A stretch of DNA of 52,064 nt, taken from Craspedostauros australis (lineage: Eukaryota). Location: the NCBI GenBank assembly GCA_030167865.1, contig JALAGF010006545.1:1-52064 (forward strand). Reading direction: 5' to 3'. Of the stretch, positions 9,883-46,080 are shown piece by piece. The number at the start of each line of letters is the position of its first letter. Position 1 is the first letter of the stretch. A program made the translations under genes and the position numbers. The notes beneath the pieces were generated by a model. That model searched no databases. It was given only the letters and a program-made list of their open reading frames with translations, and had not been told where the DNA came from.

Positions 9883-11202
9883 CAGTGTCAGAAATGTGGG
9901 TGACATCGCTACTCAACATGGACCAATCAGAGGCCTCCAAACTTTAGCTAGCTTCGTTTCGAGTAGACTGATTTATTCAAAGTTTATCACAATTGTCGCA
10001 GCTTCCGAAGAATTATCACCAGACTCAACGGACCAATCAATCAAGCCAACAGCCAATCAACCAAACCGAGATCTTTGATGCCAGAAGGACGTTTTGTCTG
10101 GCGCACACAAGATTCGGTTTGTGGGTTGCGATCGGTGGCAGATGTGTTGTGTTGCGGTCTTTACTGGTGGAGGAGACAAGATGAGAAGCCATCAACCTGT
10201 TCCACTCGATGACACACACATTCTTCGCGCACAAGCAAATACCCGAACCCGAACGGATTCCAAACCCCACAAAATTGCCGACGAGCACACAACAGAGCAG
10301 AGCAGAACAAAGCAAAGCAAAGCAAAGCAAAGCAAGAGGAGGAATCCAACAGCGAAGGTGCGTACTGTGCAGCGCAACGCCGCGAAAGTTGCCTCTTCGG
10401 AGGACGACGCCATGGCGGTGCCGATCTTTCGTTTGACCATGGCGGTTGGAAAGGAGTATCCTGGCGTGATGCGGTCATCGGTGGATCGGAAGCATTCGTG
10501 ATGATGGCCAGCAGCTGCTGCCTCCTTTCGCAAATTCCGCTGCTGCCGACATCATCATCGCGGCGGCCAACCAGATCGGTCATGTGTCCCAGGTGATGCT
10601 CTGCTGTTCCTTCGCTTTGGTGTTCTCACCGATCGTGTCTCTTCGTTCTTCACTCCGTCTCCGTCAATGGAGTTCGCACCCACCTTTCCATCCATTCCTC
10701 CACCCAATGCACTGCCACCGCGAACAACAACAACACGACACAACTGGTGGATCCATCACCACGCGACGACCTGCCATGGATCTCCGCTCCGGGCACAAAA
10801 AAAAAACAGCAGCTGACAGCAATCGGTGGAGGGCACACAAAACACAAAACAATACTCGCACCGAGTTGCCAACCACAAAATCAAATCAAACCAAATCGAA
10901 GCACATCACATCACAATCCAGAGAGCAACACCATCCAGAGCGAAACCAGCACATCAGCAAATTGGACGATCGGCATCGTTGCAATACCTACCTGCTCTGT
11001 GCCAACACTGCCAAATCCGAACGAGTGGGCCCGACATCAACGTCCTGTCCCAATTTCGCCTCTCTTGGTGACTAATCTTGAAAGCCAAGTCAGGACAAGT
11101 CAAGACAAGCCAGCACAAGCGCTGAGCAACAACAAGCGAAACGAACCATTCCACAACAGCGGCAGCACCAACAGGAAGCAAGCACATCGCCATCATCTCA
11201 TC

Positions 11203-14200
11203 ATGAGATTTTGTGGAAAAGCCGTGCCGTTGGCATTGATGGTCCTTGCGACCGCCGCTCCCGCTTCTGTGGCGTATCAGAACAGTGGCACCAACCCCCA
11301 CCACGGCAGCAGTCACAGCAAGCGCACCTCGCCTTCCCCCATGAAGGATTCCAGATTGGAATACGCTTCGAATGCCTCTGTCGACAGCTCCCTGTTCCTC
11401 AAGGGCGCCGTCCAAGTGCGGTACTCGGATGATACCATCCGCCAGGAGTACCAGACGTGGTGCACCAAGCACAGCAAATCCCTGCAGGACAGCACGGACA
11501 ATGCCCGCTACACCCAGTTCAAGTCCAACTGGATCCGCCAGCAGGAGTACGGCAAGAAGACTGGCCAGTACTTCGAGCTCAACGAATTCGGGGACTGCTC
11601 CTACGACGAGTACCTGGAGCGTGACATCATCCGCAAGGAGTACGGCGACTGGTGCGCAGAGTATGGCAAGACGGCCGACTTCGAATCGGACCGCTACGCC
11701 AACTTCGCCACCAACTGGAAACGCCAGGCCGCGTACAACGAGCAGCACAACATGTACTACAAGCTCAATGAATTCGGCGACATGTCGCAGGACGAATTCA
11801 CCCGCGTGCAGCCCAACGACGCTGCCGCCGGTACATCTGCCGTCACCCCACCGGCAACGGCCGCATCCTCGTCCTCCGTCTCGAGCCTGTACGCGGCTCC
11901 ATCATCCTCGGCATCCCCGCCGGCTTCCACGGGAGCCTCCGCCACCACCACCGACGACGATCTCACCATCCGATCTGAGTACGCCAATTGGTGTGTCAAA
12001 TTCAACAAGGTGGAGGACGATGCCAGGTTCGCCCAGTTCAAGATCAACTGGACCCACCAGAGCGAGCACAACCTCCGAACCGGTGCATCCTTCCAGCTCA
12101 ACGAGTTCGGCGACATGTCCCAGGATGAGTTCCAACACCAGTTGCAGGGTGCCAAATCCTCCACCGCCTCCTTCGTCACTGACGATGACACAGACGAGGA
12201 TGCTCTCATCAAGGGAGAGTACGCGGACTGGTACACCCGCTACAGCAAGCTACCAGACGAACATCGTTTCGCCCACTTCAAGGAGAACTGGAAGCGCCAG
12301 AGCGAGTACAATGCCCAGGTCGGGATCAACTACCTCCTCAACGAGTTCGGTGACATGTCCCAGGAGGAATTCACCTCGATGAAGGAAGAAAAGGAGCAGG
12401 ATGCGTCTGCCTCCTCCTCCTCCGACCCGGATTCCACGTCTGCCATGTCGTCGCTTTACTCCGCACCGACGGCAGACAAGGGCCCCAACATGGCTGACGA
12501 GAGCAAGCCATTCGCTGCCGTGGCATCCACCCCCGCACCACCCCTGCCGGTCGTGTCCACGGCAGCGAAGAGCGCGAGCGACGTCACCATTCGCTCCGAG
12601 TACTCCAGCTGGTGCGCCAAGTACAACAAGAAATCCGACGAAGCTCGCTACGTCCAGTTCAAGCAGAACTGGATTTGCCAGAACGATTACAACATCGAGA
12701 ATGGCACCAGCTTTGATTTGAACGAATTTGGCGACATGTCGCCAGAAGACTTCACGTCCATGCAGCAACAAGAGCAGGCAAGCAGTCTCAACACCAGCAG
12801 CACCAGCGATGCTACCATTGAGACCAGCCCAACGATCGATGCCTCATCCTCATCGTCGGTTGAATCTCTCTACGCTGGCCCTTCGTCCATCGTTGAACCA
12901 GAAGCGACATCGGGATCGTCGTCGTCGTCTTCGGTGTCCTCGTTGTACCCCGCACCGACCGACACCAAGAGCGAAACTGAGGTTGCTGATGTTGTCATCC
13001 CACCTCCTGTCGACGTTGACATCGGTGCCGGCACTGACACCGACATTGCCATCACTACTGACTCATCTGCAGTCGATTCGAACGTCGTCGACGATGCAAC
13101 GGTCCGCTCCAAGTACTCGAGCTGGTGCGCCACGTACGGTAAGCGACCAGACGAAGACCGTTTCGTCAAGTTCAAGCAAAACTGGATCCGCCAATACGAG
13201 TACACCCAGCAGACCGGGAACACCTTGGAGCTCAACGAGTTCGGCGACCTCTCCGAAGAGGAGTTCCACGAGCACAGACAGCTCCAGCAGCGCAAGCAAC
13301 AGCAGCAACTCCAGCAACAGCAGAGTGATGTTGACGCTGCGATCGCCCCCAAGACAGCTCCAGAGATCCTCGATGAAAGCAAGATCCGCTTCGAGTACAC
13401 GGCATGGTGCATGAAGTACGACAAGAAACCCAGCGAGGCCCGTTTTGAGCAGTTCAAGATCAATTGGGAACGCCAGCACCAGCACAATCTCGAAAATGGA
13501 TCGGAGTTCGAGCTCAACAAGTACGGCGATCTTAGCCCGGCCGAGTTTAGGGAGGTTCTACAGGACGAAACGAGCGACGAGACTGATGTCGTTGAGAACG
13601 CAGCACCATCAGTTGTCTTCGACGAACCCACTGTGGACAACTTCACACCACCTGTCCCCGCCAAGACGAAGGCCAGCATCGACCTTTCAACCCCAACTGA
13701 AGCGCACCGCGATGTTGCTGACGCTGTCGACCTTACCACGGGTGCAGTCGAGGTGCCGTCCGCACTAGAGGAAGTTGCGGGGTACAGTATTCCCGATGTT
13801 ACCCCCGACGTTGCCTCGGATATCATCGACGAGACTGCGACCGAAGACGCCACCGACGATATCGAAGATGAAGACGCCAAGATCAGATCGGACTACCAGG
13901 AATGGTGCGTCAAGTATGAGAGACAAGAAGACGAGACTCGCTTCCCCAACTTCAAGCAGAACTGGATCCGCCTGAACCAATACAACGCGGACAATGGAAG
14001 CTCTCATTTCCTCAACGAATACGGCGACTACTCCGACGATGATTTTGCGTCCATGCAAGCAGAGGCAGACGCAGAGGCGAAGGTAGCAGCAGAAGCTGCA
14101 GAGGCCAAGGCGAAAGCCCAGGCGGAAGCAGAAGAGGCCGCCATCGCAGAGGTTGCAGCCATAGCAAAAGCAGAGGCCGAAGCTGAAGCGGAAGCCGAAG

Positions 14201-16710
14201 CAACTGCCGCCGCCGCCGTTGCTGCTGCCGCCGAATCTGCAGAGCCTGCTGCACAAGTCGAAGTTCCCAAACCAGCAGCTCCAGAGCGCCTTTCCAAACC
14301 AGCGGCTCCGGAACCTCCGTCGCTCTTGCAATCACCAAAGCCCATGCAGGGTGGCCTTCCGGTCGAGGAGAGTGTTTGGGATACGCCCATGCCGAGCCTC
14401 TCGCTCGGAGCCACCACTCCAGCACAGCCAGCCATCCCGGATCCAGCCCAAGAAGATGACTCGAAGATCCGATTCGAGTACGCGGCATGGTGCATCCGAC
14501 ACAGCAAGGAGCAAGATGAGAACCGTTACCTTCAGTTCAAGCAAAACTGGATCCGCCAGAACGATCGCAACACAGAGACCGGCGAATCCTTCGGCCTCAA
14601 TGAGTACGGAGATCTCTCACCTTCCGAATACCAGCAGATCTCGCAACAGGAGGAGGAGATGTCGCCCGACGCAGGAAGGTCAGACTACGAGGAGTGGTGC
14701 GTCAAGTACGATAAGACGCCCGAAGACCATCGCTTCGAACAGTTCCAAGTCAACTGGCTTCAGCAGCAAAAGTACGGGAAGGAGACTGGCGACTACATCG
14801 AGCTGAACGAGTTCGCCGACTGTACAGCCGCTGAGTACCATGCTCTCAAGAGTCTGGCGGAAGCAACCGGCGCCACTCTCGCCCAGCCACCCCCGCCAAA
14901 GGTAGAGGAAGCGAAGGAAGCCAAAGAGATGACAGAAGAGAGAGGTGACGAACTATCATCTGCCTTCATCGCCGCCACCACCACCGCCGGCAAGGGATAC
15001 TTGGACACCTTGATGCCCTCCAGCTCTGATCGCGTCACTGGAAGCGGAGCTGACATTAAGGGCTACGTCGACTTCCTCAAGTCGACCGCAACCGACAACC
15101 ACGGAGAAGGAATCCGCTCCCACCTCGACTCTGTCGCTTCTGCCGATGCCTCGGCATTCTCGACCGATGCATTCCCCAAGGCTCCACCAACAGGTCCATC
15201 CCACACCCCACAGGCCACGGTGATTCCTGACGTGAGCAGTATGAACGCATACTCCGCACAAATGCAAGATCCAGACGCTGCGTTGGCCGCTGCGGCGGCT
15301 GATGCGGCGAAAAACGCCGTGAAGCCACTGGACCAGAACTTTTCGTACCTCAAGAAACCAGCCATGGCGACCCCTTCAGGATTGTCCAACGGAACTGGCT
15401 TCAAGTACTTGGATCGTCTCAAGACCTCCAAGCCAACCCGCAGCAATGGTGCAGGAATGAAGGGATACCTCGACGGAATGAAGCCGAAGCCAACGGCCTT
15501 TGTTGGTCGCGGCAAGGGCATCCCATCCTACTTGGATCGTGTCAGCAATGTGAATGCTTCCCAGCTATCACCGCCAGAGAGCAGCAAGGTGCAGGCGGCC
15601 CCGGCACCCGCGACTGTGGCTCCAACCAAGACAGGTGAAGCATGGATGCCACCGCCTCCCCAGACCGAGACGGCGGAAGCACCTCGCATGCCCGCGCACG
15701 AGCAGCAGATGTCAAGCCATCAGCAAGATATAGCACCACCAAATGCTCCAGACCTGACCTTGCAGCAAGGCGCCCAGGGAAATGCGACTCCACAGAGCGG
15801 TGGATCGCAGCCTGGGGTTCGCACATCGAACGCGTTTGGCTTCCCACCCAGAGATGGTATCTCGCAGTTCGTTGACGGGGTGACCAACTCGGATGCGCCA
15901 ACTTACTCTGCCAATGCGTTCCCACAATCGCCACCATTCGCGGGTGGCTCGGACGGGATCATCGAGAAGATCGAGCATGATTCTGTCATGTCCGCGTACG
16001 ACCAGCAGCTCGCAGAAGCAGCACCCAAGGCAGAAGCAGCACCCAAGGCAGAAGCACCGTCCAAGGCGGCAACACCCAAGAAAGATGGCATCAAGGGATT
16101 GGACGACATGTTTGCCTACAAGAAAGAGACGGTCGTTTCCTCGATTCCGGGCAATGCCAGCCCTGAAGTCGAACCACCGCGTCAGTCCGCGGCAACCAAG
16201 ACTACGAGCCCGACGCAAAAGGGCAACCTGCTGCTTGGAAAGCAGCCGCAGGCACAACAGCAACCACAAACACCAACCAAGAACAAGCCACCCGCCGCCG
16301 CAACCGCCAGTAGCAAGGCCATCAACCCACCAAAGGACATCATTGCGACACCGTGGGAGAATGCAACACGCACAGGAAGTTCGTACTTGGACGACATGCC
16401 GCGCAACGCCACGACCACGGCAGCCAACCAAACAAAGACCGACAACTTCCTGGACTTCGTCTCCAAAGAGGAGGAGGAAAAGAAGAAGGCGGAGGAGATC
16501 CGTTCCACATTCGCGGTGGAACGCACCAACCTGCTCGGGGCTTCAGGCACTCCGCAGCAACAGCTGGAAGCCCAGGAGGCCCGCGGAAAGCTTGCCAAGA
16601 TCGATAAGCAGAAGGCGGGAGAGGATGGCTCCGACAACTTCTTCAATGGATTGCGCAGCAACATCGTCGGCATGTTGAAGGGCTGGGGCTTCCTCGACAA
16701 CGGAAATTAG
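11203..16710 (+). CDS. Large (~1835 aa) signal-peptide protein with ten inhibitor-I29 (cathepsin propeptide)-like repeats and a disordered YLD-motif C-terminus
   Basis: Likely ATG at 11203 gives signal peptide MRFCGKAVPLALMVLATAAPASVA. Ten ~55-aa units with consensus IR.EY..WC.KY.K..DE.RF.QFK.NW.RQ..YN...G..F.LNEFGD.S..EF. No papain catalytic QxxCGSCW motif anywhere in the ORF. Confidence 0.85.
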   Translation: MRFCGKAVPLALMVLATAAPASVAYQNSGTNPHHGSSHSKRTSPSPMKDSRLEYASNASVDSSLFLKGAVQVRYSDDTIRQEYQTWCTKHSKSLQDSTDNARYTQFKSNWIRQQEYGKKTGQYFELNEFGDCSYDEYLERDIIRKEYGDWCAEYGKTADFESDRYANFATNWKRQAAYNEQHNMYYKLNEFGDMSQDEFTRVQPNDAAAGTSAVTPPATAASSSSVSSLYAAPSSSASPPASTGASATTTDDDLTIRSEYANWCVKFNKVEDDARFAQFKINWTHQSEHNLRTGASFQLNEFGDMSQDEFQHQLQGAKSSTASFVTDDDTDEDALIKGEYADWYTRYSKLPDEHRFAHFKENWKRQSEYNAQVGINYLLNEFGDMSQEEFTSMKEEKEQDASASSSSDPDSTSAMSSLYSAPTADKGPNMADESKPFAAVASTPAPPLPVVSTAAKSASDVTIRSEYSSWCAKYNKKSDEARYVQFKQNWICQNDYNIENGTSFDLNEFGDMSPEDFTSMQQQEQASSLNTSSTSDATIETSPTIDASSSSSVESLYAGPSSIVEPEATSGSSSSSSVSSLYPAPTDTKSETEVADVVIPPPVDVDIGAGTDTDIAITTDSSAVDSNVVDDATVRSKYSSWCATYGKRPDEDRFVKFKQNWIRQYEYTQQTGNTLELNEFGDLSEEEFHEHRQLQQRKQQQQLQQQQSDVDAAIAPKTAPEILDESKIRFEYTAWCMKYDKKPSEARFEQFKINWERQHQHNLENGSEFELNKYGDLSPAEFREVLQDETSDETDVVENAAPSVVFDEPTVDNFTPPVPAKTKASIDLSTPTEAHRDVADAVDLTTGAVEVPSALEEVAGYSIPDVTPDVASDIIDETATEDATDDIEDEDAKIRSDYQEWCVKYERQEDETRFPNFKQNWIRLNQYNADNGSSHFLNEYGDYSDDDFASMQAEADAEAKVAAEAAEAKAKAQAEAEEAAIAEVAAIAKAEAEAEAEAEATAAAAVAAAAESAEPAAQVEVPKPAAPERLSKPAAPEPPSLLQSPKPMQGGLPVEESVWDTPMPSLSLGATTPAQPAIPDPAQEDDSKIRFEYAAWCIRHSKEQDENRYLQFKQNWIRQNDRNTETGESFGLNEYGDLSPSEYQQISQQEEEMSPDAGRSDYEEWCVKYDKTPEDHRFEQFQVNWLQQQKYGKETGDYIELNEFADCTAAEYHALKSLAEATGATLAQPPPPKVEEAKEAKEMTEERGDELSSAFIAATTTAGKGYLDTLMPSSSDRVTGSGADIKGYVDFLKSTATDNHGEGIRSHLDSVASADASAFSTDAFPKAPPTGPSHTPQATVIPDVSSMNAYSAQMQDPDAALAAAAADAAKNAVKPLDQNFSYLKKPAMATPSGLSNGTGFKYLDRLKTSKPTRSNGAGMKGYLDGMKPKPTAFVGRGKGIPSYLDRVSNVNASQLSPPESSKVQAAPAPATVAPTKTGEAWMPPPPQTETAEAPRMPAHEQQMSSHQQDIAPPNAPDLTLQQGAQGNATPQSGGSQPGVRTSNAFGFPPRDGISQFVDGVTNSDAPTYSANAFPQSPPFAGGSDGIIEKIEHDSVMSAYDQQLAEAAPKAEAAPKAEAPSKAATPKKDGIKGLDDMFAYKKETVVSSIPGNASPEVEPPRQSAATKTTSPTQKGNLLLGKQPQAQQQPQTPTKNKPPAAATASSKAINPPKDIIATPWENATRTGSSYLDDMPRNATTTAANQTKTDNFLDFVSKEEEEKKKAEEIRSTFAVERTNLLGASGTPQQQLEAQEARGKLAKIDKQKAGEDGSDNFFNGLRSNIVGMLKGWGFLDNGN

Positions 16711-17189: not shown

Positions 17190-18351
17190 TTAGTCGTAGA
17201 CACATGGGGCATTGGATGACGACGTGATGATGAGCGCGACGATGAAACCATACAGACCAATGGCTCCGCTGAAGGACAAAATTGTGACCTGGCCGATGTA
17301 GAGCTTTCCTGCATCACCCTCCTCAACGATCTCTCCTCCTCGGCCGCCGCCTCCGAATGCGTTTGCCTTGGCGTGGTTGAGCTCGGCACGCAGACCCGTC
17401 GCTCGGATGCCGACATCTCCAGCAACTCCGGTGGCACCGCCAGCCGCCAAACAGCAGAGACCGCACGAGATTCCAGCAGCGAAATGGGCCCAGCCAGTGT
17501 ATTGCGAGTATGTGTTTCCATTCTCAGTTGGTGCAGAGATTCCTCCGCTGATGATGATGGAAACGATAAGTCCATAGATTCCGAGCACTCCAGCCATGAT
17601 GATAGCCACCAGGTTCTTAATGATACCGTTTGGATGCGTGATACCCATTCCGCACAGTCCCAAACCGGACTTCCATGTTCCCCATCTGTAGTTTTGCAAC
17701 GTCGAAGCGTGGCGTGTTGTTGCGGATCGATTGTAGCAGAACAGAGCAGACATGTGTCAGATGGCAGTATGTGACGGGTGTGCACAGATGGATACGAACG
17801 CAGCCTGTGTTGAAAGCTGCTCAGAGAAGACTTGATTCCAAATCCATCCGCAGCCAAGATGACTCCAACAGGCCTGTCTCCGTGCAGTTCAAATCCATGC
17901 TGTCACGCGCATCCTGTCCATCGATGCAATCATGCACTTACGCAGCTCCCCAGTTGGCGAAGACAATGCAAAGGGCGGCGCCCAGGTAACCACTGCGAAA
18001 CGGAGATCAAGTCGTGTGCAACAGTGGCAGCGTGCACACATGAAGCCAAGCAAATGGACGTGAGGAAGGAACGAAGGTGGGAGTGCAACCCAAATGAACG
18101 CTGGTGTGAGTGATTGAATGATTGATACCATCGTGTAACATAACATAACATAGCGCAACGCAGCGCAATACAACACAAGCCATTGCGACGCTGCCCAACA
18201 CACATCGCATCGCGCTGCAAATCAATCCAGGAAAGCGCGCCAAGACCGCTCCGCACCCAAATCCCGGCATTGGTGACAACGAAATCGACACTTACAGAAC
18301 TGGTGCCCATGATGGGCAAGTCTCATATCCCACTGGTGAATCGTCTGCCAT
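17190..18351 (-). CDS. VHA-c: V-type H+-ATPase V0 proteolipid subunit c paralog (200 aa); 3 exons; lacks the canonical Glu
   Basis: Exons 18351-18296, 17992-17942 and 17685-17190, with GTAAGT...CAG introns. Spliced protein: MADDSPVGYETCPSWAPVLGYLGAALCIVFANWGAAWGTWKSG...IIMAGVLGIYGLIV...AHFAAGISCGLCCLAAG...GDVGIRA...ILSFSGAIGLYGFIVALI. Confidence 0.92.
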
Positions 18352-22900: not shown

Positions 22901-23469
22901 CACTATCGACCATGGGCCACGGCGAAACAGAGAAAGCACGAGCACGGCATCGCAGTAGGCGGAGTCGGTTCTATCAGCGGCAACTGCGTAACGAGAGGAG
23001 AGAGCGCGGGCAGTTGTTGGTGTCCCTCATGAGAAACCAACAGAAGGCAACCGCCCTGAGGCGAAGGAGCCACAGCCACAACAGCAACCACTGCAGCAAC
23101 CGCATCCTCGATCCACCACTCTCTCTGGGGCACAATCCGTGTACTGCACTGCAACAACCCCAACGACAGTAACCAGATCAACGAGGCAAAGCCAGAAGGC
23201 ATCCGCAACAATAACATCCATCATACTCAACCCTACTCAACCCTACTCTACTCTGCATACTGCTGGTGCTGCTGGTCCTACGAGTAGGAACATCACCAGC
23301 ATTGACAAGCTCCATCAACAGGCAACGCAGAAGAGGAGAGTGAAGTGAAGTCAAGTGAAGTCAAGTGAAGTCGAATACTCCACGTGCTCCACGTACTCCG
23401 CCATCCTCCGTTGCATTAGCCCTCCCTCGTTGAGCACCTTCACATAGCTCGTATAATACCATACGAATA

Positions 23470-23556
23470 CGATCTGTTATACAACGATCTGTTATACAGC
23501 GATCTGCTATACAACGATCTGCTATACAACGATCTGTTATACAACGATCTGTCATA
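23470..23556 (+). repeat. 15-nt minisatellite CGATCTG(T/C)TATACA(A/G), 5 full copies plus a partial copy
   Basis: Units start at 23470, 23485, 23500, 23515, 23530 and 23545; the array ends 3 nt before the ATG at 23560. Confidence 0.95.
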
Positions 23557-23559
23557 GTC

Positions 23560-26500
23560 ATGCAGCAGCACACCATGAAGCCAAAGCGCAACAGCAGCAA
23601 CAACGGCGAAGACGCCGACGATGACGCCGACGATGCCGCGGACATCGAGAACGCGCGGCAGAGGGTGGAAGTCAGCGTCGACTTCCGCGCACCGCCGCAG
23701 CGCGATGAGATCAGCGACATCCACGACCAGCACAGCGACGGCGGCGCCTCGTGGATCGGCAGGGTCTTCGAATCGGGCAAGGCTCGCAAGCGCGGTCACG
23801 CGCGTCGGCGCCGTCGCAAGTCGTCGCGCAGCGGAGATCTCGTGGGCCTCGTCGACACGGTCGAGAGCTACGGACAGGTGCAGCCCGACACGAACAGCCG
23901 CCGCCATCGTCCCACCCTCATCTCGCACGTTCCGCTCGTGGACCTGTTCCGCGAACAGCGGGACCATGCGAGGCTGCGACGCCAGACGTCCAGCTTGTCG
24001 AGCCAGATCCATGGGGGCACGCGCCACAAGCCCGGCGGCAGCAAGTTCGGCATTGATCATTATTCCGATGCCGTCTCGCGCACATCGAGGCGCCGCCACA
24101 TCCTCGACGCGGCCGGCATCTCGCCCACCTCCTTCCAGGCGCGTTCCGTCGCCTTGTTGCGGTGGGCAGTGATCATTGTCTGGCTGACGGCGGCCTGCAT
24201 CATCAGTCTCGTTCTCGTCAAGAGGTACGCCGAGGGCAAGGAGGAGGATGAGTTCCAGTTCCAGTTCAAGGCCAACGCTGACAAGCTGGTCAACAGCTTC
24301 CGAACCTCCACGGACAACCGCTTGAACGCCGTCAACGCCTTGGCCACCTACATCACCGTCTTCGCTCGAGAGACCAGCGTGGAGTTTCCATTCGTCACGC
24401 TGCCAGGTTTCGTCATGGCCGGTGCGAATACCCGCATCTCCGCAGAATCCATCGTCGTCTCCTGGTTGCCCCTGATCACGGATGCCAACCGGGAACGGTG
24501 GGAAGCCTACGCCTACACCAGAAGGTTCCACGCCAACAGGGCCCTCAAGCAAGATACATTCTTTCGCAAGCAGCAGGATATCGAGCACGGTTACCTCGAT
24601 GCCGAACAGGGCGCCAAGGAGCTGGCCAAGTACGCAAGCTACGCGGAGGACGTATACGTCAATCCTCCCCTGGAAAACGTCACGGTCATCAACAACACCG
24701 TCAGGGACGGGACCTCCTACCATCCCCAGATTTGGGGAAGCAGAGATGGCGATGCTCCCAGACCAAAAGGATCCGGCCCGTATCTCGTCACGTGGCAGCG
24801 CTCACCGGCCAGCAACTTCATGCAGTTTGGGCTGAACACCGATGCTGCCACGAATCCTATCCGACGCGGCGTTGTTGGTCACATCCTCAATCAGAAGAAA
24901 CCCGGCATCCTCTTCCATCCTTCGTCGTTTCCACGACCAGAAACTGTTGCATTTGCCAACCAAACCATACAGCAATCGCAATATCGGCACGACGGTGAGG
25001 CCTATCTCGGCGATCCAGCGGCCGTGGTCTCCTACCCCATCTACGACGATTATGGCAAGGGCAATTTCATCGGGGTGTTGTCGTTGACCTTGTACTGGAG
25101 ACTCTTCTTCATCAACATCCTGCCACGCAACGCCAAAGGATACATCTGCGTCCTGCAAAACAAATTCAACCAGACGCTCATCTACAGAGTGGACGCTGAT
25201 CAAGCGCGATTCATCAGAAGCGTTCCACCAGACGAAGTCGATAGCCTGAGCTTTGGCTTCGACGACATGGTCGTCACGTCGGAGATCGGCATGGACGACA
25301 GAGCCAACGCACGATCAAAGGTGGAGACGCAAGCCTACACCACGCTCCCCATCGACACCGACTACAACACCTACACCATCCGCATCTACCCCACGCAGGA
25401 AACGTTCGACGTCTACAAAACGGACGATCCCATCTTCTACACCTCCCTCGTCGCCGGGATCTTCGCTGTGGCGGCCATGGTCTTCCTGGCCTACGACTTC
25501 TGCGTGCAGAAGCGACAGCAGCTCATCGCCTCCAAGGCCATCGAGAATGCACAAAAGGCGGCGGCGGCCGAGCGCGATCTCAACGAGTACATCGCGCACG
25601 AGGTCCGCAATCCCTTATCGGCAGCCCTCAGCGCCTGCAGCTTCGTCGACTCGGCCGTCAACGAGGTGCGTCCTTTGTCCGACGACGAGTCCAAGCAGCT
25701 CGTGCGCGAAGATGTGCAAATCATCAACTCCTCCTTGACCTTCGTCAACGAGCTCTTGCGCAACCTGCTGGATCTGCATCGTGCCACGGATCGGCAGATT
25801 CGAATTCGCAAACGGCAGACGGATATCTTCGAGGAAGTGTTGCGTCCCGTGGCGTCCATCTTGTATCGTCGCGATGCGAGTTACGAGCTGATCGTGGAGT
25901 GCTGTCCGAGGCAGCTGCTCGTGGATACGGACTGTCTGCGTTTGAAGCAGGTGCTGTTGAATTTGGGTCGCAACGCGTCCAAGTTTGTGGAGGGCGGGTT
26001 TCTGCGTTTGCGAGCGGAGATCGAAGGGGAGGACGATGCTGCTGCTGTTGGTGGTGACGGTGGTGGTCGCACTGATGGTGGCAATGGAGGGACAGACGCC
26101 AACATGAACTTGGACAGCACGATGGATGGGAGGGGGCAACTGGGTCGTTCCGTGAAGATATACGTGGAGGACTCAGGTCCTGGCATTCCAGCGGAGAATC
26201 GTAAGCATCTCTTCTCCAAGTTCAAGGAAAGTCTGGATGTGGCCACGCAAGGGGCTGGGATTGGGCCGTGTCTCTGCAAGAATCTCATGGACATCATGGG
26301 AGGTGACATCAGTCTGGATGAAACGTACGACAGCGGTGTTCCGGGCAGGCCAGGAACACGCTTCGTCATCGATTTGAAGGAGATGCCATCGGAGCCGCCG
26401 AATGCGCAAGGCACAAACCGCACGGCCGGGACAGGTGGGGCCGCTGGCAACACACAGAAGCCTGCACGATCTGTTGCGTTCGCCCCTCTTCATCCATCCG

Positions 26501-27747
26501 AAGCCATCGAAACGCCGGCAACGGGTCCACATGGGGGGACGGAGGCCATGCCTCAAGAATCAACTGACAAGACGGAGATCGATACTGGCAAAGGAAGCAC
26601 CGACGGCTTGTACAGCGGGGATGGGGATGACAACGACGACGATCGACACTCGATCGTGTTGACATCACCCGTCACATGTGATGCCTTCCAGGACTTGGGC
26701 TCGAGTTCGCACAGCAAACGGCGCACCATGAAACGCAGCTACTCGAATCTGTCTTCCTTGTCTAACGAGCCGATCGACGAAGGCTTTGAGGATGAGACGA
26801 GCAGCGGAGGGAATTCGGGATTGACGCCTGTGCTATCTCTAGGGGACGAAGAAATGCGTGACATATCCGGTTCGACCAGCACCGAGCCAGGCAGTGCTGA
26901 CAAGGGCAGTGAGGGAGCTGCTGCTTCACCTTCCAAGCAGCAACAGCAGCATGAAGAGCAGCAGGGTGATCCGGGGACAGATGTGGCAACGCCTCAGACT
27001 GTGGTCACTGGGAGTGCGAATACTGCAGACGCTGACGACGCGGCCCAGCAAGCGATGTCACCAGGCCAGTCCATCTTCGCAAGTCAATCGCCGCAGCATC
27101 CCTCCAAGTCCCTGTCATCAAGTGATCTCGTTCAGTCCGCGCTTCTGGGCAACTCGGACAGTTCAGGCTTGCTAGAGGCATCGCTGTCGTTTGACCAGGA
27201 ACCTCCAACGAGTCCTCGGTCACTGCCCGCAATTCCTCTGTCGCCATCACAAAATGTCGACGTCTCTGATACCAAAACGACGAATGAGGAACATGACGAC
27301 GCAGCAGACAAGAAGGACGACGAAACTAGCGAAAAACAACGCAGCGATTCAGTGCCGACCGACGAGCTCCCGGAGAAGCTGTCCGTTCTGTTCGTTGACG
27401 ACGACAAGGTGCTGCGCAAGCTCTTCGGACGCTGCGTGAAACGAGCATTCCCCGATTGGACGGTGAAGGAAGCACCCGACGGCGAAACGGCGTTGCAGAT
27501 GGCTGACAAGGGACTTCACGATTTGATCTTCATGGACCAGTACATGTCGACGGCGGAAAAGAAGCTGCTCGGCACGGAGACGGTGGAGGAAATGAGACGG
27601 CGCGGCATCACGAGCAAGATCTGCGGTCTGTCGGCCAATGATGTTGGTGAGGCATTCTCTGCGGCGGGCGCAGACGCCTTCATCTGCAAGCCGTTGTCGT
27701 TTGACAAGGCCCGGTTGCAAGAGCAGATTAAATGGATCATGTCGTGA
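23560..27747 (+). CDS. Membrane-bound hybrid sensor histidine kinase (TM-sensor-TM-HisKA-HATPase-linker-REC)
   Basis: Two TM helices flank a CHASE-like region. H-box EYIAHEVRNPL (His 25597-25599), N-box QVLLNLGRNASKF, G1 VEDSGPGI, F-box LFSKF, G2 GAGIGP. Receiver VLFVDDD...LIFMDQYM...GLSAND...FICKP. Confidence 0.93.
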   Translation: MQQHTMKPKRNSSNNGEDADDDADDAADIENARQRVEVSVDFRAPPQRDEISDIHDQHSDGGASWIGRVFESGKARKRGHARRRRRKSSRSGDLVGLVDTVESYGQVQPDTNSRRHRPTLISHVPLVDLFREQRDHARLRRQTSSLSSQIHGGTRHKPGGSKFGIDHYSDAVSRTSRRRHILDAAGISPTSFQARSVALLRWAVIIVWLTAACIISLVLVKRYAEGKEEDEFQFQFKANADKLVNSFRTSTDNRLNAVNALATYITVFARETSVEFPFVTLPGFVMAGANTRISAESIVVSWLPLITDANRERWEAYAYTRRFHANRALKQDTFFRKQQDIEHGYLDAEQGAKELAKYASYAEDVYVNPPLENVTVINNTVRDGTSYHPQIWGSRDGDAPRPKGSGPYLVTWQRSPASNFMQFGLNTDAATNPIRRGVVGHILNQKKPGILFHPSSFPRPETVAFANQTIQQSQYRHDGEAYLGDPAAVVSYPIYDDYGKGNFIGVLSLTLYWRLFFINILPRNAKGYICVLQNKFNQTLIYRVDADQARFIRSVPPDEVDSLSFGFDDMVVTSEIGMDDRANARSKVETQAYTTLPIDTDYNTYTIRIYPTQETFDVYKTDDPIFYTSLVAGIFAVAAMVFLAYDFCVQKRQQLIASKAIENAQKAAAAERDLNEYIAHEVRNPLSAALSACSFVDSAVNEVRPLSDDESKQLVREDVQIINSSLTFVNELLRNLLDLHRATDRQIRIRKRQTDIFEEVLRPVASILYRRDASYELIVECCPRQLLVDTDCLRLKQVLLNLGRNASKFVEGGFLRLRAEIEGEDDAAAVGGDGGGRTDGGNGGTDANMNLDSTMDGRGQLGRSVKIYVEDSGPGIPAENRKHLFSKFKESLDVATQGAGIGPCLCKNLMDIMGGDISLDETYDSGVPGRPGTRFVIDLKEMPSEPPNAQGTNRTAGTGGAAGNTQKPARSVAFAPLHPSEAIETPATGPHGGTEAMPQESTDKTEIDTGKGSTDGLYSGDGDDNDDDRHSIVLTSPVTCDAFQDLGSSSHSKRRTMKRSYSNLSSLSNEPIDEGFEDETSSGGNSGLTPVLSLGDEEMRDISGSTSTEPGSADKGSEGAAASPSKQQQQHEEQQGDPGTDVATPQTVVTGSANTADADDAAQQAMSPGQSIFASQSPQHPSKSLSSSDLVQSALLGNSDSSGLLEASLSFDQEPPTSPRSLPAIPLSPSQNVDVSDTKTTNEEHDDAADKKDDETSEKQRSDSVPTDELPEKLSVLFVDDDKVLRKLFGRCVKRAFPDWTVKEAPDGETALQMADKGLHDLIFMDQYMSTAEKKLLGTETVEEMRRRGITSKICGLSANDVGEAFSAAGADAFICKPLSFDKARLQEQIKWIMS

Positions 27748-31956: not shown

Positions 31957-32327
31957 GTCATTCCTCCCAACTCGCGGCTGTCGACATCAATCCCATCCCC
32001 TGGTCGCACCAACGTGCCTCACCTCATCACTCAATCTCATACGAGTCAAACAAGTGGAAGAAGCATCTCGTCACAAGAGCAGATCTTGGCTTCGTTTCGC
32101 CTCCCAAGCGTGCGACTCAGTTGTGCCATCAACAAAAGCGGCAGTACCGGGGAAGCTTGCGTTCGGTTCACACCCTCACTATCATCGCCATCACCATCAC
32201 CATCAACAGCACTCTATCCTCCCCATCCCTCATAAAGTCAAGTCAGCTCAGACAATACATCACATCGCCAAGCAAAGCAACACAACACGCCACAACGTAC
32301 CACAATTGATCGCTGCCAACAGCGACG

Positions 32328-35300
32328 ATGACCAATCTCCTGCTGGCCGTCTCATCGGCGTCTCGCAGACGCTCCGCCATGTTGGCACGCAGGCTCCTGG
32401 CCTCCTCCAGGAGCGGTGCCATTTCGACTGCTCCGGCCTCCATGCCATCGATCCGTTCCAACGCCTTCAGAGCAATCAGCACCACCCTGGCAACCGCATC
32501 TCCGCTTCTCGACCCTCCAACAACGAACACCATCGCCAAGCGCTTCAGTCACGACGGCATGCAATCGCTGGGAGATCCCTCGCGCCTCACGCAGGAATCG
32601 CAGGCCCAACCATGGCAGGCCGAGAACAACGTCGACGTGCAGCGCGTCACGCGACAGGCACTCATCTACGAACTGGCGCAGCAATCCAGCGGCACCCTCG
32701 AACGCGTCGTGCCATGGTTCTTTGACAACATGCCCAAGTCCTACTTCAAGCAGGTCCCAGACCACATGCGGTTGGATCACATCAAGGCCATCGCCGCCGT
32801 CTTCGCCTCGCCGCATCTGGGTCGCAGCCAAACGGCCGACACCATGCACACCGCGACGCACTGGGATTCGGCCAATCTGCATCTCAACCTCAAGACGCCG
32901 CTGCCCGATGGTCGCATCGTGTGGACCTTCATCCGACCCGGCACCAAACCCGGCACGTTGCTCGGCATGATCGAGGAGCAGAAGCATCTCGACATGACGG
33001 CGTCGGCGGGATCCGCGGAGCCGCATCCGCTCGATCTGCACGGCAAGTTCCAACCCAATCTGAAGCAGCGATCGTACGCCGCGGCGGTATCGGCCCAGGA
33101 CTCCACGGCCGGCGCATTCGCCAACACCAAGCTCCCGTTGAGCCGGCTTCTCGTCTTCAGTTCCAAGGACGAGTCCGTCTCCCTCAACATGTTCGTCTAC
33201 GGTCGCAAGACTCTCACCAAGCATCAGCAGAGCCCGGCAGCGACGACCACCGCCGCGGCTGATGCCCCCAGGACCTCGGCGTTGACGGAACGTCCCATGA
33301 CGCGCGAGCAGTCCATCCAATCCATCATCTCGCATGCGCAGGAGCATGTGCAGTCGGGCAAGCTCGAAGGTTCGCCACACAACCTGTCCTCGTCGCCGCT
33401 CTTCGAACCGGAGGCCTTGCGCGAGTACATGGAAACATCCTGCTCGGACAATTACATCAGCATCGGTCAGAAGGTCCCACGACGCTTCCTGCGACAGCGC
33501 TTGATGGTGGACAAGGTGTCGGGCACGGAGGGCACCGAGGTGCACATCGAACCGGGCACGATCCATGGCTTCGATCTGCTGTCGGAAGACGTCGCCACAG
33601 ACGAGTCCTACTACTGGGTCGATGTGGCAGTTGCCAATTCCTTGCCGCAGATCGCGCTGGAGCACACGTGCCGTCTGCTTTACATGCACCAATTCGATGT
33701 CTCGCGCGCGCGTTTGGACATCATCCAGGATGGTGAGAACGGCAGCATCACCATGCTGCGCCTGCTCGTGCGACCCATCGAAGGTGGACGCGCCGCGTTG
33801 GAGGAGATCTCCAACAAGCTCGTCGGCACCTCCATTTCCGAACCAGGAGATATCGGGATGGATGCCGCCACCTCCAACCTCCTGGTCAACAATGACGATG
33901 AAGGTGGCGATATTGCGGGAGAGGTGTGCCGCATTGCGGGCGTCAGGCAATCCGAAAAGCTCTTCCCCTTGCTGGCGCAGGAGATGAAGCGCATCAAGTG
34001 GCTGGATCCGTCCACGATCAACCTCGTCTTTGACAGCCACATGCGCTACCACAATGCCAGCAGCAACCCCAAGACGACCGCCAACCCCAAGGGCGTTGTG
34101 GGCGTCGTGCAGGGCGAGATCATCACGGCCATGGCAAGTCTCATGCATCCCATCCTCGCACGCGACGGCGGCGACGCCCTTCGCTACAGCAAGGCCAGCA
34201 TCCTCCAAACGCTGTCCAAACCGCGCCTCCTGCCATGGGCCATCCAGATCGCCAACCTCTTCCTGGAGCGATTCAACCCCAAGAATCCCCTCAGCGATGA
34301 CGCGCAGCTGCAACGACGCATCGACCAGCTCAAGCAAGACATCTCCAAGAACGTGGAGGATTCGCTGGCCGTCGAATTGCTGCACAAGATGATGGACATC
34401 GTCACTCACACGCTCAAGACGAACGTCTACATGGAGAATCGGTACGGGTTGGGCGTGCGGTTGGATCCCGCCCTCATGGCGTCGCACAAGGAGGAATTGC
34501 CCTACGGCATCTTCTTCGTGCATGGCCGGCGCTTCAATGGATACCACGTCCGTTTCCGCGACATCAGCCGCGGTGGCATGCGTCTCGTCACGCCCAGCAG
34601 CAGCGAACAGCTGGCCTTGGAGAGTGCGCGTCAATTCGATGAGTGTTACGGATTGGCCTTCGCGCAGCAGCTCAAGAACAAGGATATTCCAGAAGGAGGC
34701 AGCAAGGCCGTGTGCTTGATCGACACGGTCGACCTCGCCAACGCCACCAACGACACGGAGGATGCCCGTAACTTCGCCGTGCGCAAGTCGGTCAAGGCGT
34801 TCACGGACACCATCCTGGATCTGGTCGTGTCGACGGACGAAACGAAGAGCACCATCGTCGATTACTGGGGTCAGCCGGAGGTGCTCTACTTGGGTCCCGA
34901 CGAGCAAGTCATCCCGGAGGACATCAACTGGATCATCTCGCGTGCCGCCGAACGCGAATACCCGACGCCGCCCGCATTCATGAGTTCCAAACCAAAGGCC
35001 GGCATTAACCACAAGGAATACGGTGTCACGAGCGAAGGCGTCAACGTGTATTTGGACGTGGCGTTGCGCGAGACGCTCAACATCAACCCCGACGAGGACA
35101 CCTTTACCATCAAGATGACTGGCGGGCCGGATGGCGACGTCGGCGGCAACGAGATCAAGATCCTCGCACGCGAGTATGGCGACAGATGCAAGATCGTTGG
35201 CGTCGCCGATCACTCCGGTTGCGCCGAGGACCCGAACGGGTTGGATCAGGACGAACTTGTGCGCTTGGTCGATTCCAGCTTGCCGATCGTGCACTTCGAT

Positions 35301-36227
35301 CTGAGCAAGCTCAGCGCCGATCCTGCCAGCATCGTGCATGATGTGCAGGACTCGGAGGAAGCCGTCAAGGCTCGCAATACCATGCACAACCGCTTGGTCG
35401 CCGATGCCTTCGTGCCGTGCGGTGGCCGGCCCAACACCATCGACAAGACCAACTACAAGAACTTCTTGCTCAGCGAAGGTGTGGGAGACAATCTGGCGAC
35501 ACCGTCGTCGCGGCTGATCGTGGAAGGCGCCAACCTGTTCGTCACGAACGAGGCCCGACAGGCGCTTTGGGATGAAGCCGGTGTTTCCATCGTGAAAGAC
35601 TCATCCGCCAACAAGGGCGGCGTGATCACCAGCTCGTACGAGATCTGCGCCGCCATGCTGATCCCCGACCAGGATGACTTCTTCGCCAACAAGGACGCCA
35701 TTGTGTCCGAAGTGCTGGCCAAGCTGCGTGGTCTAGCCAAGCTGGAAGCCGAGCTGCTGTTCCGCGAACAGAAGGCGTACGGCAACACCGTGGCGTTGCC
35801 CAAGATCAGCCAGATCATCTCCAACAGCATCAACACCGCCACCGACGCGTTGACGGAGGCGTTGGACGCGCTATCGGACTCCGAACGCAACGACCTGCTG
35901 CCTTTGTTCCGCGCCCACCTGCCACCGACGATGGCTGACATGTCCTTCGACAAGGTGCACGAGCGCGTTCCGGCGCAGTACATCAAGAACGCCATCGCGT
36001 CCTGCCTCGCATCCAAGCTGGTGTACAAGGAGGGAACCAAGTTCGTGGATTCGCAACCACGCGAGCAGCTGGCCCAGATGGCGTTGAAGTACATCCAGAA
36101 GGAGCGCGAGATCGCGGTATTGATGAAGTCGATCGAAGAGGACGCGCCCAACATGCCGGACGACGAGAAACAGCACATCCTGCGTTTGTTGGAGGCCGGT
36201 GGCGCCCGCACGGCCTTGAACTTCTGA
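32328..36227 (+). CDS. GDH2: Large NAD-specific glutamate dehydrogenase (fungal GDH2 type), probably mitochondrial
   Basis: Motifs RFRDISRGGMRLV, QQLKNKDIPEGGSK, LYLGPDE, GINHKEYGVTSEGV, TGGPDGDVGGN, FVPCGGRP, IVEGANLF and KDSSANKGGVITSSYE. R/S/A-rich, acid-free N-terminus. Confidence 0.95.
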   Translation: MTNLLLAVSSASRRRSAMLARRLLASSRSGAISTAPASMPSIRSNAFRAISTTLATASPLLDPPTTNTIAKRFSHDGMQSLGDPSRLTQESQAQPWQAENNVDVQRVTRQALIYELAQQSSGTLERVVPWFFDNMPKSYFKQVPDHMRLDHIKAIAAVFASPHLGRSQTADTMHTATHWDSANLHLNLKTPLPDGRIVWTFIRPGTKPGTLLGMIEEQKHLDMTASAGSAEPHPLDLHGKFQPNLKQRSYAAAVSAQDSTAGAFANTKLPLSRLLVFSSKDESVSLNMFVYGRKTLTKHQQSPAATTTAAADAPRTSALTERPMTREQSIQSIISHAQEHVQSGKLEGSPHNLSSSPLFEPEALREYMETSCSDNYISIGQKVPRRFLRQRLMVDKVSGTEGTEVHIEPGTIHGFDLLSEDVATDESYYWVDVAVANSLPQIALEHTCRLLYMHQFDVSRARLDIIQDGENGSITMLRLLVRPIEGGRAALEEISNKLVGTSISEPGDIGMDAATSNLLVNNDDEGGDIAGEVCRIAGVRQSEKLFPLLAQEMKRIKWLDPSTINLVFDSHMRYHNASSNPKTTANPKGVVGVVQGEIITAMASLMHPILARDGGDALRYSKASILQTLSKPRLLPWAIQIANLFLERFNPKNPLSDDAQLQRRIDQLKQDISKNVEDSLAVELLHKMMDIVTHTLKTNVYMENRYGLGVRLDPALMASHKEELPYGIFFVHGRRFNGYHVRFRDISRGGMRLVTPSSSEQLALESARQFDECYGLAFAQQLKNKDIPEGGSKAVCLIDTVDLANATNDTEDARNFAVRKSVKAFTDTILDLVVSTDETKSTIVDYWGQPEVLYLGPDEQVIPEDINWIISRAAEREYPTPPAFMSSKPKAGINHKEYGVTSEGVNVYLDVALRETLNINPDEDTFTIKMTGGPDGDVGGNEIKILAREYGDRCKIVGVADHSGCAEDPNGLDQDELVRLVDSSLPIVHFDLSKLSADPASIVHDVQDSEEAVKARNTMHNRLVADAFVPCGGRPNTIDKTNYKNFLLSEGVGDNLATPSSRLIVEGANLFVTNEARQALWDEAGVSIVKDSSANKGGVITSSYEICAAMLIPDQDDFFANKDAIVSEVLAKLRGLAKLEAELLFREQKAYGNTVALPKISQIISNSINTATDALTEALDALSDSERNDLLPLFRAHLPPTMADMSFDKVHERVPAQYIKNAIASCLASKLVYKEGTKFVDSQPREQLAQMALKYIQKEREIAVLMKSIEEDAPNMPDDEKQHILRLLEAGGARTALNF

Positions 36228-45400: not shown

Positions 45401-46080
45401 GGACTACATTAGAGACTAAAGAATATCGCATTCACGACATCGGACAGGCAAAGCCCTCTTGACGATTCATTTAAGCCGCAATGACCGGAAGAAAAGTCAC
45501 ACTCCATTGCATTCAGTCATCCTCGGGGTCTTGAATCGAATGTCCTGCCATAAGTAATAGGCCCGCTTTCACGATCAAACCGCGTTGCAGCGCTGCCGGC
45601 AAAGTCGGGACAGGCGGAATTGCGCTCTTTGGGTGCGTCGCTGTGTGCGTGTGTTGCCTTTTTCCTCCCACAACGCGTACGGTGTGAGACCAACAAAAAG
45701 AGCCAGCACTGTGCGTGGTGGAAACAACGCAGGCAAAATAGGCGCAAACAGGCAACTGCATCCCCTTTCTTGGCACAACCGGAATTGCTCAATTGCACAT
45801 TCCTGCATCGTCTGACCATTACTTCGGAGCTGTGCGAGTTGAGCCTTCCATCATAGCAACACAACGCAAACCCATTCAAACGCCTCCGGAGCAAGCAGAG
45901 CAACAACCAGACAAGAGAGAGAAGAGATATAGCAAGCAAGCAGGAGAGCAAGCAAGCAAGAGACCACGAGAGATCGAGCGAGAGAAACCATACGATTGGC
46001 GCCAAACGAATTCGGCCAACCGCAACCCACACTCGCAGAGCATCTGAACGCATCCAAACACCCATAAACACACGATCACG

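Follow-up and report, generated by a model that had tools for sequence, protein, structure and literature searches.

The window analysed here, a stretch of 52,064 nucleotides from the diatom Craspedostauros australis (contig JALAGF010006545.1), carries on its minus strand a gene for a 200-residue V-type c proteolipid in which the essential glutamate of the fourth transmembrane helix (TM4) is replaced by glycine, Gly176. In the textbook V-ATPase mechanism, every proteolipid of the ring bears an essential carboxylate. The loss of Glu is old, conserved and expressed, and therefore challenges the rule of one carboxylate per ring subunit. The best explanation, which we hold tentatively, is that the protein may be a low-copy, proton-silent subunit of the V0 ring that would lower the number of protons pumped per turn.

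The gene has three coding exons, and its parts are as follows.

18351..18296, 17992..17942 and 17685..17190, minus strand: coding sequence of the proteolipid gene in three exons (minus-strand sequence and contigs of run X1).
18296..18351, minus strand: coding part of exon 1, with the ATG at 18351-18349, encoding MADDSPVGYETCPSWAPV plus two bases (sequence, the 17992/18296 joint and the match to P0122).
17993..18295, minus strand: intron 1, 303 nt, GTAAGT..CAG (contig joint at depth 526; the ends are CT..AC on the plus strand).
17942..17992, minus strand: exon 2, 51 nt, encoding most of TM1, GYLGAALCIVFANWGAA (sequence, contigs and the match to P0122).
17686..17941, minus strand: intron 2, 256 nt, GTAAGT..ACAG (contig joint at depth 877).
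17190..17685, minus strand: coding part of exon 3, encoding the end of TM1, TM2, TM3, the long loop and TM4, with the stop codon TAA at 17192-17190 (open reading frame, translation and contig).

Both introns are GT..AG on the minus strand, and contigs of run X1 span the joints over 17686-17941 and 17993-18295. The label of this run, 'RNA?', is a guess, and it is the spliced joints that suggest RNA. The contigs extend the transcript at its 5' end at least to 18450 (a contig spanning 18296-18450) and the 3' UTR at least to 17107. Since the exon 3 contig (17107-17685) and the window agree without a single difference, the G at 17266 is no assembly slip of the window alone. In addition, the transcript-derived protein P0122, assigned in UniRef to Craspedostauros australis under the name 'V-type proton ATPase proteolipid subunit', equals the spliced 200-residue product letter for letter. 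The gene model and Gly176 are thus confirmed by the spliced contigs and by an identical transcript-derived protein. The intact splicing and reading frame claimed by the sequence-only reading hold, the base that it singled out for checking is G in independent contigs, and the copy is expressed and spliced. An in-frame stretch of 87 nt with GT..AG ends (17395-17309) might have concealed an intron whose removal would delete the loop insertion described below; however, this stretch is kept in P0122, the exon 3 contig is colinear with the window and both ends of the stretch are conserved as protein among orthologs, and a hidden intron was therefore rejected.

RNA retaining intron 2 is a minor form, with a depth of 19 for the unspliced contig versus 877 for the spliced joint. 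A 187-residue 'protein' in the public databases (P0002) is a read-through open reading frame of intron 2 and represents an annotation artefact.

The neighbouring genes (an I29-repeat protein, a methyltransferase, a hybrid histidine kinase, an NAD-glutamate dehydrogenase and a dUTPase) are unrelated to the proteolipid and give no functional hint. On the plus strand, an open frame of 2037 codons at 10597-16710 converges on the 3' end of the proteolipid gene; it contains many repeats ending in ...LNEFGD... and matches the Pfam I29 cathepsin propeptide inhibitor (E 6e-51, three stretches passing), and a secreted multi-I29 repeat protein of this kind would be unusual. Further along the same strand lie the large hybrid histidine kinase (23434-27747; HisKA, HATPase_c and a receiver domain), the large bacterial-type NAD-glutamate dehydrogenase (32310-36227; Bac_GDH_CD and ELFV_dehydrog) and a frame at 46048-48684 with the Pfam domains pAdhesive_15 (a putative ice-binding-like adhesive domain, E 1e-22) and DUF7633, the product of which is possibly an adhesion protein.

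The former proton site and the two helices that bear on it are located as follows.

17265..17267, minus strand: codon GGA for Gly176, the position of the essential Glu in V-type c (sequence, alignment and contigs).
17535..17633, minus strand: TM2, residues 54-86, with no acidic residue (AlphaFold2 helices and BLASTP).
17220..17318, minus strand: TM4, residues 159-191, with the remodelled site Thr170, Ser173, Ser175 and Gly176 (alignment and AlphaFold2).

Around the site the minus strand reads AGC GGA GCC ATT GGT CTG TAT GGT TTC ATC GTC, that is, S-G-A-I-G-L-Y-G-F-I-V. The phmmer alignment with solved structures sets 'ilsfsgaiglygfiv' of the window protein against 'ilifaealalygliv' of citrus c and 'ilifsevlglygmiv' of yeast c', which puts Gly176 exactly at the proton-carrying Glu, and the same Gly/Glu register is obtained by BLASTP against the canonical c of diatoms. 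TM2 (IIMAGVLGIYGLIV) is devoid of acidic residues, and its core, MAGVLGIYGLIV, is identical to that of diatom canonical c (BLASTP). No Asp or Glu lies within any predicted helix core of the 200-residue product, and the sole acidic residue near a helix core, Asp126, lies where TM3 meets the cytosol and is shared by canonical c; a membrane-embedded proton-carrying Glu, located on TM4 in c and c' and on TM2 of the core in c'', is absent. The sequence-only reading had assigned Gly (GGA, 17267-17265) to the TM4 Glu position and had noted that TM2 lacks Glu; the first statement is upheld by sequence, phmmer, BLASTP and contigs, and the second applies to every helix core. In TM3, the protein has GGATG versus GMAIG in canonical c (Gly/Thr for Met/Ile), and the Gly-rich motifs of TM1 and TM3 are retained.

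The long-loop groups described below have two conserved Cys residues, one within the N-terminal motif E-T-C-P and the other close to the C terminus (Y-x-C), both on the lumenal side; these also occur in some canonical stramenopile c subunits. A lumenal disulfide joining the N- and C-terminal Cys of the long-loop proteolipids is possible.

In V-type c, both termini are lumenal, the TM3-TM4 loop is cytosolic and lies by subunit d, and the outer ring facing subunit a consists of TM2 and TM4. AlphaFold2, supplied with a 28-row alignment, predicted four helices for the window protein (residues 16-47, 54-86, 97-145 and 159-191) with a pLDDT of 74.4, falling to about 50 over residues 141-160, and a pTM of 0.70. 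In a Foldseek search of the PDB, this model matched the c chains from citrus, yeast, human, rat, pig and bovine enzymes with E values of about 1e-8 and target-normalised TM-scores of 0.83-0.90, with weaker matches to c'' chains, to Enterococcus NtpK and to Acetobacterium woodii c1 (4bem_J); the predicted structure thus has the four transmembrane helices of the c fold. The Pfam profile PF00137 was matched at E 2e-12 (47.6 bits versus a cutoff of 24) over a stretch comprising the first hairpin only, and phmmer against all solved structures returned 21 proteolipid sequences, with citrus c as the best (E 1.3e-26) and yeast c' as the second. By both the profile and the solved c subunits, the protein is a member of the V-type proteolipid c family.

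The most conspicuous departure from the canonical fold is the loop between TM3 and TM4.

17310..17393, minus strand: cytosolic TM3-TM4 loop insertion, residues 134-161, LRAELNHAKANAFGGGGRGGEIVEEGDA (phmmer, BLASTP, alignment and AlphaFold2).

This loop comprises 28 residues versus two in citrus c (phmmer) and appears as a single 26-residue gap against diatom canonical c (BLASTP). In the AlphaFold2 model, its first 12 or so residues prolong the TM3 helix and are followed by a low-confidence Gly-rich linker and then by an acidic stretch before TM4. The ends of the insertion, LRAELNHA and EGDAGKLYI, are conserved among orthologs. The window protein shows every feature of a class defined in the present analysis, the long-loop proteolipids, namely a TM3-TM4 insertion of about 25-45 residues, an extended TM3, a Gly-rich middle and an acidic stretch preceding TM4.

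A word-indexed search with the exon 3 product as the query retrieved 592 proteins at E <= 1e-5, and the best 120 of these were examined at the Glu position. Gly was found in 113 and Ser in one, four (a sister paralog) have Glu, and the remaining two (P0108 and P0112) are models that end before TM4. The clade of the window protein with Gly at this position is referred to here as group A. Its named diatom members come from Corethron, Stephanopyxis turris, Chaetoceros, Eucampia, Dactyliosolen, Cyclophora tenuis, Craspedostauros australis and Phaeodactylum tricornutum (XP_002182445.1), and its Parmales from Triparma verrucosa and 'scaly parma', so that the Gly spans early-branching centric to raphid pennate diatoms as well as Parmales. 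The TM4 motif ILSF[SA]GAIGLYGF recurs among the homologs, with ILSFSGAIGLYGF the commonest form among the 120 best, and identity within group A is 70-80%. The view of the sequence-only reading that the changes neighbouring the Gly mark real divergence is supported by this conserved Glu-less clade, but most orthologs have Ser at the position that it described as 'M to Q'.

Selection was assessed by Nei-Gojobori counts on 11 coding sequences (55 pairs), consisting of the window gene and ten of the 11 group A genes encoded among 80 loci of a metagenome contig scan; the remaining one, L011, was left out because of an intron-like insert in its loop. In pairs with the window, the synonymous p-distance is 0.69-0.82 and thus saturated, and the non-synonymous p-distance is 0.15-0.30. 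A finite dS was obtained for only 14 of the 55 pairs, in which omega has a median of 0.096 and a range of 0.08-0.19 (maximum 0.188). The median pN is 0.125 versus a pS of 0.755 in TM4 and 0.36 versus 0.82 in the loop. Synonymous variation is seen at the site itself: the codon for Gly176 is GGA in seven and GGT in four of the 11 sequences, and the Ser three residues upstream is encoded by TCN as well as AGY codons. The low omega, the low pN of TM4 and the synonymous variation at the Gly and Ser codons indicate that the Glu-less site is actively maintained, and by these codon counts the clade is under purifying selection; a conserved Glu-less clade with dN/dS below 1, which the sequence-only reading had proposed to look for, is thus found.

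It follows that an error in the sequence, a wrongly spliced gene model or a pseudogene in decay has next to no chance of being the explanation, and all three were rejected. A single base change would suffice to turn GAA into GGA, and the in-frame GT..AG pair offered a possible hidden intron. However, the independent contigs show no differences, both real introns are spliced, P0122 is identical, the Gly is common to 113 of the best 120 homologs with omega about 0.1, and the 87-nt stretch is present in the transcript with its ends conserved as protein.

The four Glu-bearing sequences among the best 120 matches, for example P0120 from Odontella aurita and P0125 from Chaetoceros dichaeta, belong to a further group, B. 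They share with group A the Trp-rich end of TM1 and the TM2 region, have a Gly-rich loop that is longer still and keep the Glu in a nearly canonical TM4, LIMLIFSEALALYGL. The metagenome loci encode many more long-loop proteolipids that keep the Glu, the sole named one being from a Thalassiosira species. A second Glu-less set, group C, carries the motif VLIQVFA[GS]N[LI]GLYGL, in which the Gly or Ser is accompanied by Gln at -4 and Asn at +1. With P0316 from Pseudo-nitzschia multiseries as the query, Glu was absent from all 120 matches listed (Gly in 66 and Ser in 54), and the names in this group include Fragilariopsis, Fistulifera, Seminavis, Cylindrotheca, Epithemia, Attheya, Odontella aurita, Triparma retinervis and Craspedostauros australis. 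As the group C member P0471, with Ser at the Glu position, and P0122 are both named for Craspedostauros australis, two Glu-less paralogs are on record for this species. A related Glu-less form in which Glu is replaced by Ser is found in the haptophyte Prymnesium parvum (KAL1525071.1). Canonical c, with the motif FAEALGLYG and no insertion, was found for other named diatoms only, among them Nitzschia inconspicua, Amphora coffeiformis and Chaetoceros dichaeta. Its named diatom matches are 93-99% identical to the query, and Glu is present in 118 of the 120 matches listed, which include non-diatom stramenopiles. The sequence-only reading, which compared the protein with canonical c only, was right about the Glu loss but overlooked the loop insertion, the Glu-bearing long-loop sister paralogs and group C.

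Glu-less c-type proteolipids are also found outside groups A and C: the haptophyte forms P0162/P0163 (Prymnesium parvum KAL1525071.1) have Ser and VLIQGTASALGMYG, and P0261, a protein of 257 residues, has Asn in place of the Glu, a long N-terminal extension and a short loop like that of canonical c. A representative search gave 150 rows, which were mostly fragmentary gene predictions and were taken as leads only. Proteolipid genes also occur in tandem in the metagenome loci: L036 and L037 (103-561 and 1501-2046) hold two different long-loop Glu-bearing genes, L023 (2-94 and 1307-1903) holds a canonical c end beside a long-loop gene, and L074 (106-588 and 694-1176) holds two canonical c copies. 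These tandem loci suggest local duplication as the source of the proteolipid paralogs.

The relationships of these groups were examined in an unrooted tree (quick IQ-TREE, 191 columns) of 54 rows hand-picked from several hundred, with no c', c'' or non-stramenopile c among them. SH-aLRT support was 100 for group A, 98 for group A with the diatom members of group B, 99 for A and all of B against the rest, 89 for group C and 88 for group C with the haptophyte forms; at the main split, the canonical c rows fall on the same side as group C. Forcing all Glu-less rows (A, C and haptophyte) together cost 45.9 log-likelihood units, and their joint monophyly was rejected (AU p 0.00036), this grouping having been chosen after the tree was seen. 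As the outgroups of group A inside the long-loop clade are all Glu-bearing, Glu was lost at least twice, and group A descends in this tree from Glu-bearing long-loop paralogs. Given that the Glu is retained in the sister clade, which has this loop as well, the ancestor of group A was presumably a working ring subunit.

When compared with known systems, the window protein resembles canonical V0 c (ATP6V0C / Vma3 / VHA-c) in its four-helix double hairpin, Pfam family and TM-scores; it is 46% identical to the canonical c of diatoms, with the same TM2 core. It differs from canonical c in the Gly in place of the TM4 Glu, in the net insertion of 26 residues between TM3 and TM4, in the Trp-rich end of TM1 (NWGAAWGTWKSG versus NIGAAYGTAKSG of canonical c) and in a Pro-to-Ala change in TM2, and group A evolves much faster (70-80% versus 93-99% identity). 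Group C (for example P0471 and P0316) is likewise Glu-less, occurs in the same lineages with a TM3-TM4 loop of similar length and is 43% identical to the window protein, but forms a separate clade in which the site is rebuilt otherwise (VLIQVFA[GS]NLGLYG, with Gln and Asn). The fungal c' (Vma11) and c'' (Vma16 / ATP6V0B) are also lineage- or position-specific ring paralogs that are present in one copy and are less conserved than c; however, both retain the essential Glu and neither has a long cytosolic loop. The window protein is orthologous to neither and nests with the stramenopile long-loop paralogs in a tree devoid of c' and c'' rows; that it is no Glu-bearing ortholog of Vma11, its closest relatives being stramenopile, was judged from the match lists, no fungal row being in the tree. 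The proton site of c'' lies on helix 2 instead of helix 4, which shows that the site can move (available part of PMC2424043). The rotor of Acetobacterium woodii contains nine one-hairpin c subunits and one V-type c with a single site; in this c1, and likewise in further duplicated c subunits of which one hairpin is silent, a natural hairpin is devoid of an ion site and the ring still turns (available part of PMC9171764). Unlike the window protein, these subunits have one site per four helices, and they belong to bacterial Na+ F-type rather than eukaryotic V-type enzymes. As the window protein has no site at all, the gap between ring sites would equal two whole subunits.

In the reading that we prefer, the gene encodes a specialised c paralog that keeps everything needed for packing in the proteolipid ring and has no protonatable membrane group. 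The subunit would take one or a few fixed positions in the V0 rotor at low copy, like yeast c' and c''; its extended cytosolic loop might make a unique contact on the subunit d face that sets this position, and TM4 would present to subunit a a small, hydroxyl-rich, uncharged surface (Thr/Ser/Ser/Gly). When this silent tooth passes the stator no proton would be carried, and fewer H+ would be pumped per turn. The c fold, the canonical TM2 and packing motifs, and the descent from a Glu-bearing long-loop paralog lead us to infer that the protein enters the V0 ring at low copy number and alters the coupling ratio, for which the Acetobacterium woodii rotor offers a natural precedent. The lower identity within group A than within canonical c fits a position with fewer self-contacts, and the conserved small polar residues of the rebuilt site (Ser173, Ser175 or Ala, and Gly176) suggest a surface selected to pass the stator. 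A bolder version, which is possible but doubtful, is that V0 rings of diatoms and Parmales have one or two permanently 'blank' teeth, supplied by groups A and C and each placed by its long loop. If true, this would be a hard-wired lower gear with, for example, 8 or 9 instead of 10 H+ per 3 ATP and would make steeper gradients reachable in some compartments. It would also be the first case in eukaryotes of a natural rotor in which whole subunits are silent, overturning the rule that every proteolipid Glu is essential.

Several observations stand against a ring subunit of this kind, among them the restriction of the Pfam match to the first hairpin. The yeast enzyme no longer pumps once a neutral residue takes the place of the Glu in any one of its proteolipids (c, c' or c''). 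In the fused c10 ring of Bacillus PS3 FoF1, one E56Q change was enough to abolish ATP synthesis (available part of PMC8809890). Given this loss of function on neutralization, a Glu-less tooth might stall the rotor and not merely skip a proton. The protein could then act as a brake or switch in the V0 ring, stalling or uncoupling rotation to give a non-pumping or slipping V0 with regulatory or pumping-free roles, and its conservation and expression are compatible with such a part. However, a constitutive and strongly conserved poison subunit would be costly, the site is rebuilt rather than just neutralised, with its small polar residues themselves conserved, and natural rotors with silent hairpins function (PMC9171764, in the part available); we consider a brake distinctly unlikely.

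The two Glu-less clades of diatoms, together with the Glu-bearing long-loop forms, could equally mean separate, non-canonical rings. Here the Glu-less proteolipids would assemble outside the rotary pump, as homo-oligomers or A with C, into a structural, channel or membrane-fusion ring or pore that transports no protons. Groups A and C occur in the same lineages and are both recorded for one species (P0122 and P0471), their similar long loops are absent from canonical c, and proteolipid rings free of V1 have been proposed as pores (available part of PMC4838861). The sequence gives no pointer to a new partner, however, TM2 and the helix-packing motifs remain canonical, and the nearest paralog is Glu-bearing, as a pump subunit should be, which leaves this explanation a real but unlikely one. 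It is highly unlikely that the rebuilt site takes a cargo other than the proton, such as another ion or some small polar solute, through hydroxyl and backbone groups. The conserved Thr/Ser/Ser/Gly of TM4, the Gly/Thr for Met/Ile in TM3 (GGATG versus GMAIG) and the Gln at -4 and Asn at +1 of group C would be in keeping with a new ligand, but all rotor-ring ion sites known to us include a carboxylate, and the different rebuilding of the site in the two Glu-less clades argues against one shared ligand.

In the open texts of PubMed Central and bioRxiv (subscription journals lay outside the search), no paper was found that describes eukaryotic c subunits without the Glu or long-loop diatom paralogs, and the literature search yielded no proteomic or structural data on a diatom V-ATPase. 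A 2014 paper reportedly treats how V-ATPases and pyrophosphatases evolved in diatoms. A Protein Atlas search returned only the diatom cluster to which the protein itself belongs and clusters of generic c. The public databases give all of these proteins the generic label 'V-type proton ATPase proteolipid subunit', and gene counts of diatom V-ATPase subunits consequently mix functional classes. The functional proposals of the sequence-only reading (a lower H+/ATP ratio, an attenuated pump, a V0 that does not pump and a part in the silica deposition vesicle) are hypotheses, and its interpretation is supported in part. The named carriers of group A are all diatoms or Parmales, both of which are silicifiers, and the Glu-less form of Prymnesium parvum is from a haptophyte; the link to the silica deposition vesicle is no more than this shared distribution.

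In conclusion, two conserved and expressed carboxylate-free c-type proteolipids exist beside a nearly invariant canonical c in globally important algae. Either rotary rings tolerate and use wholly silent subunits to set H+/ATP, or c-type proteolipids have a conserved non-pumping job. Both options are testable in transformable diatoms such as Phaeodactylum, which has an ortholog (XP_002182445.1), and both bear on the acidification of diatom vacuoles, silica deposition vesicles and other compartments.
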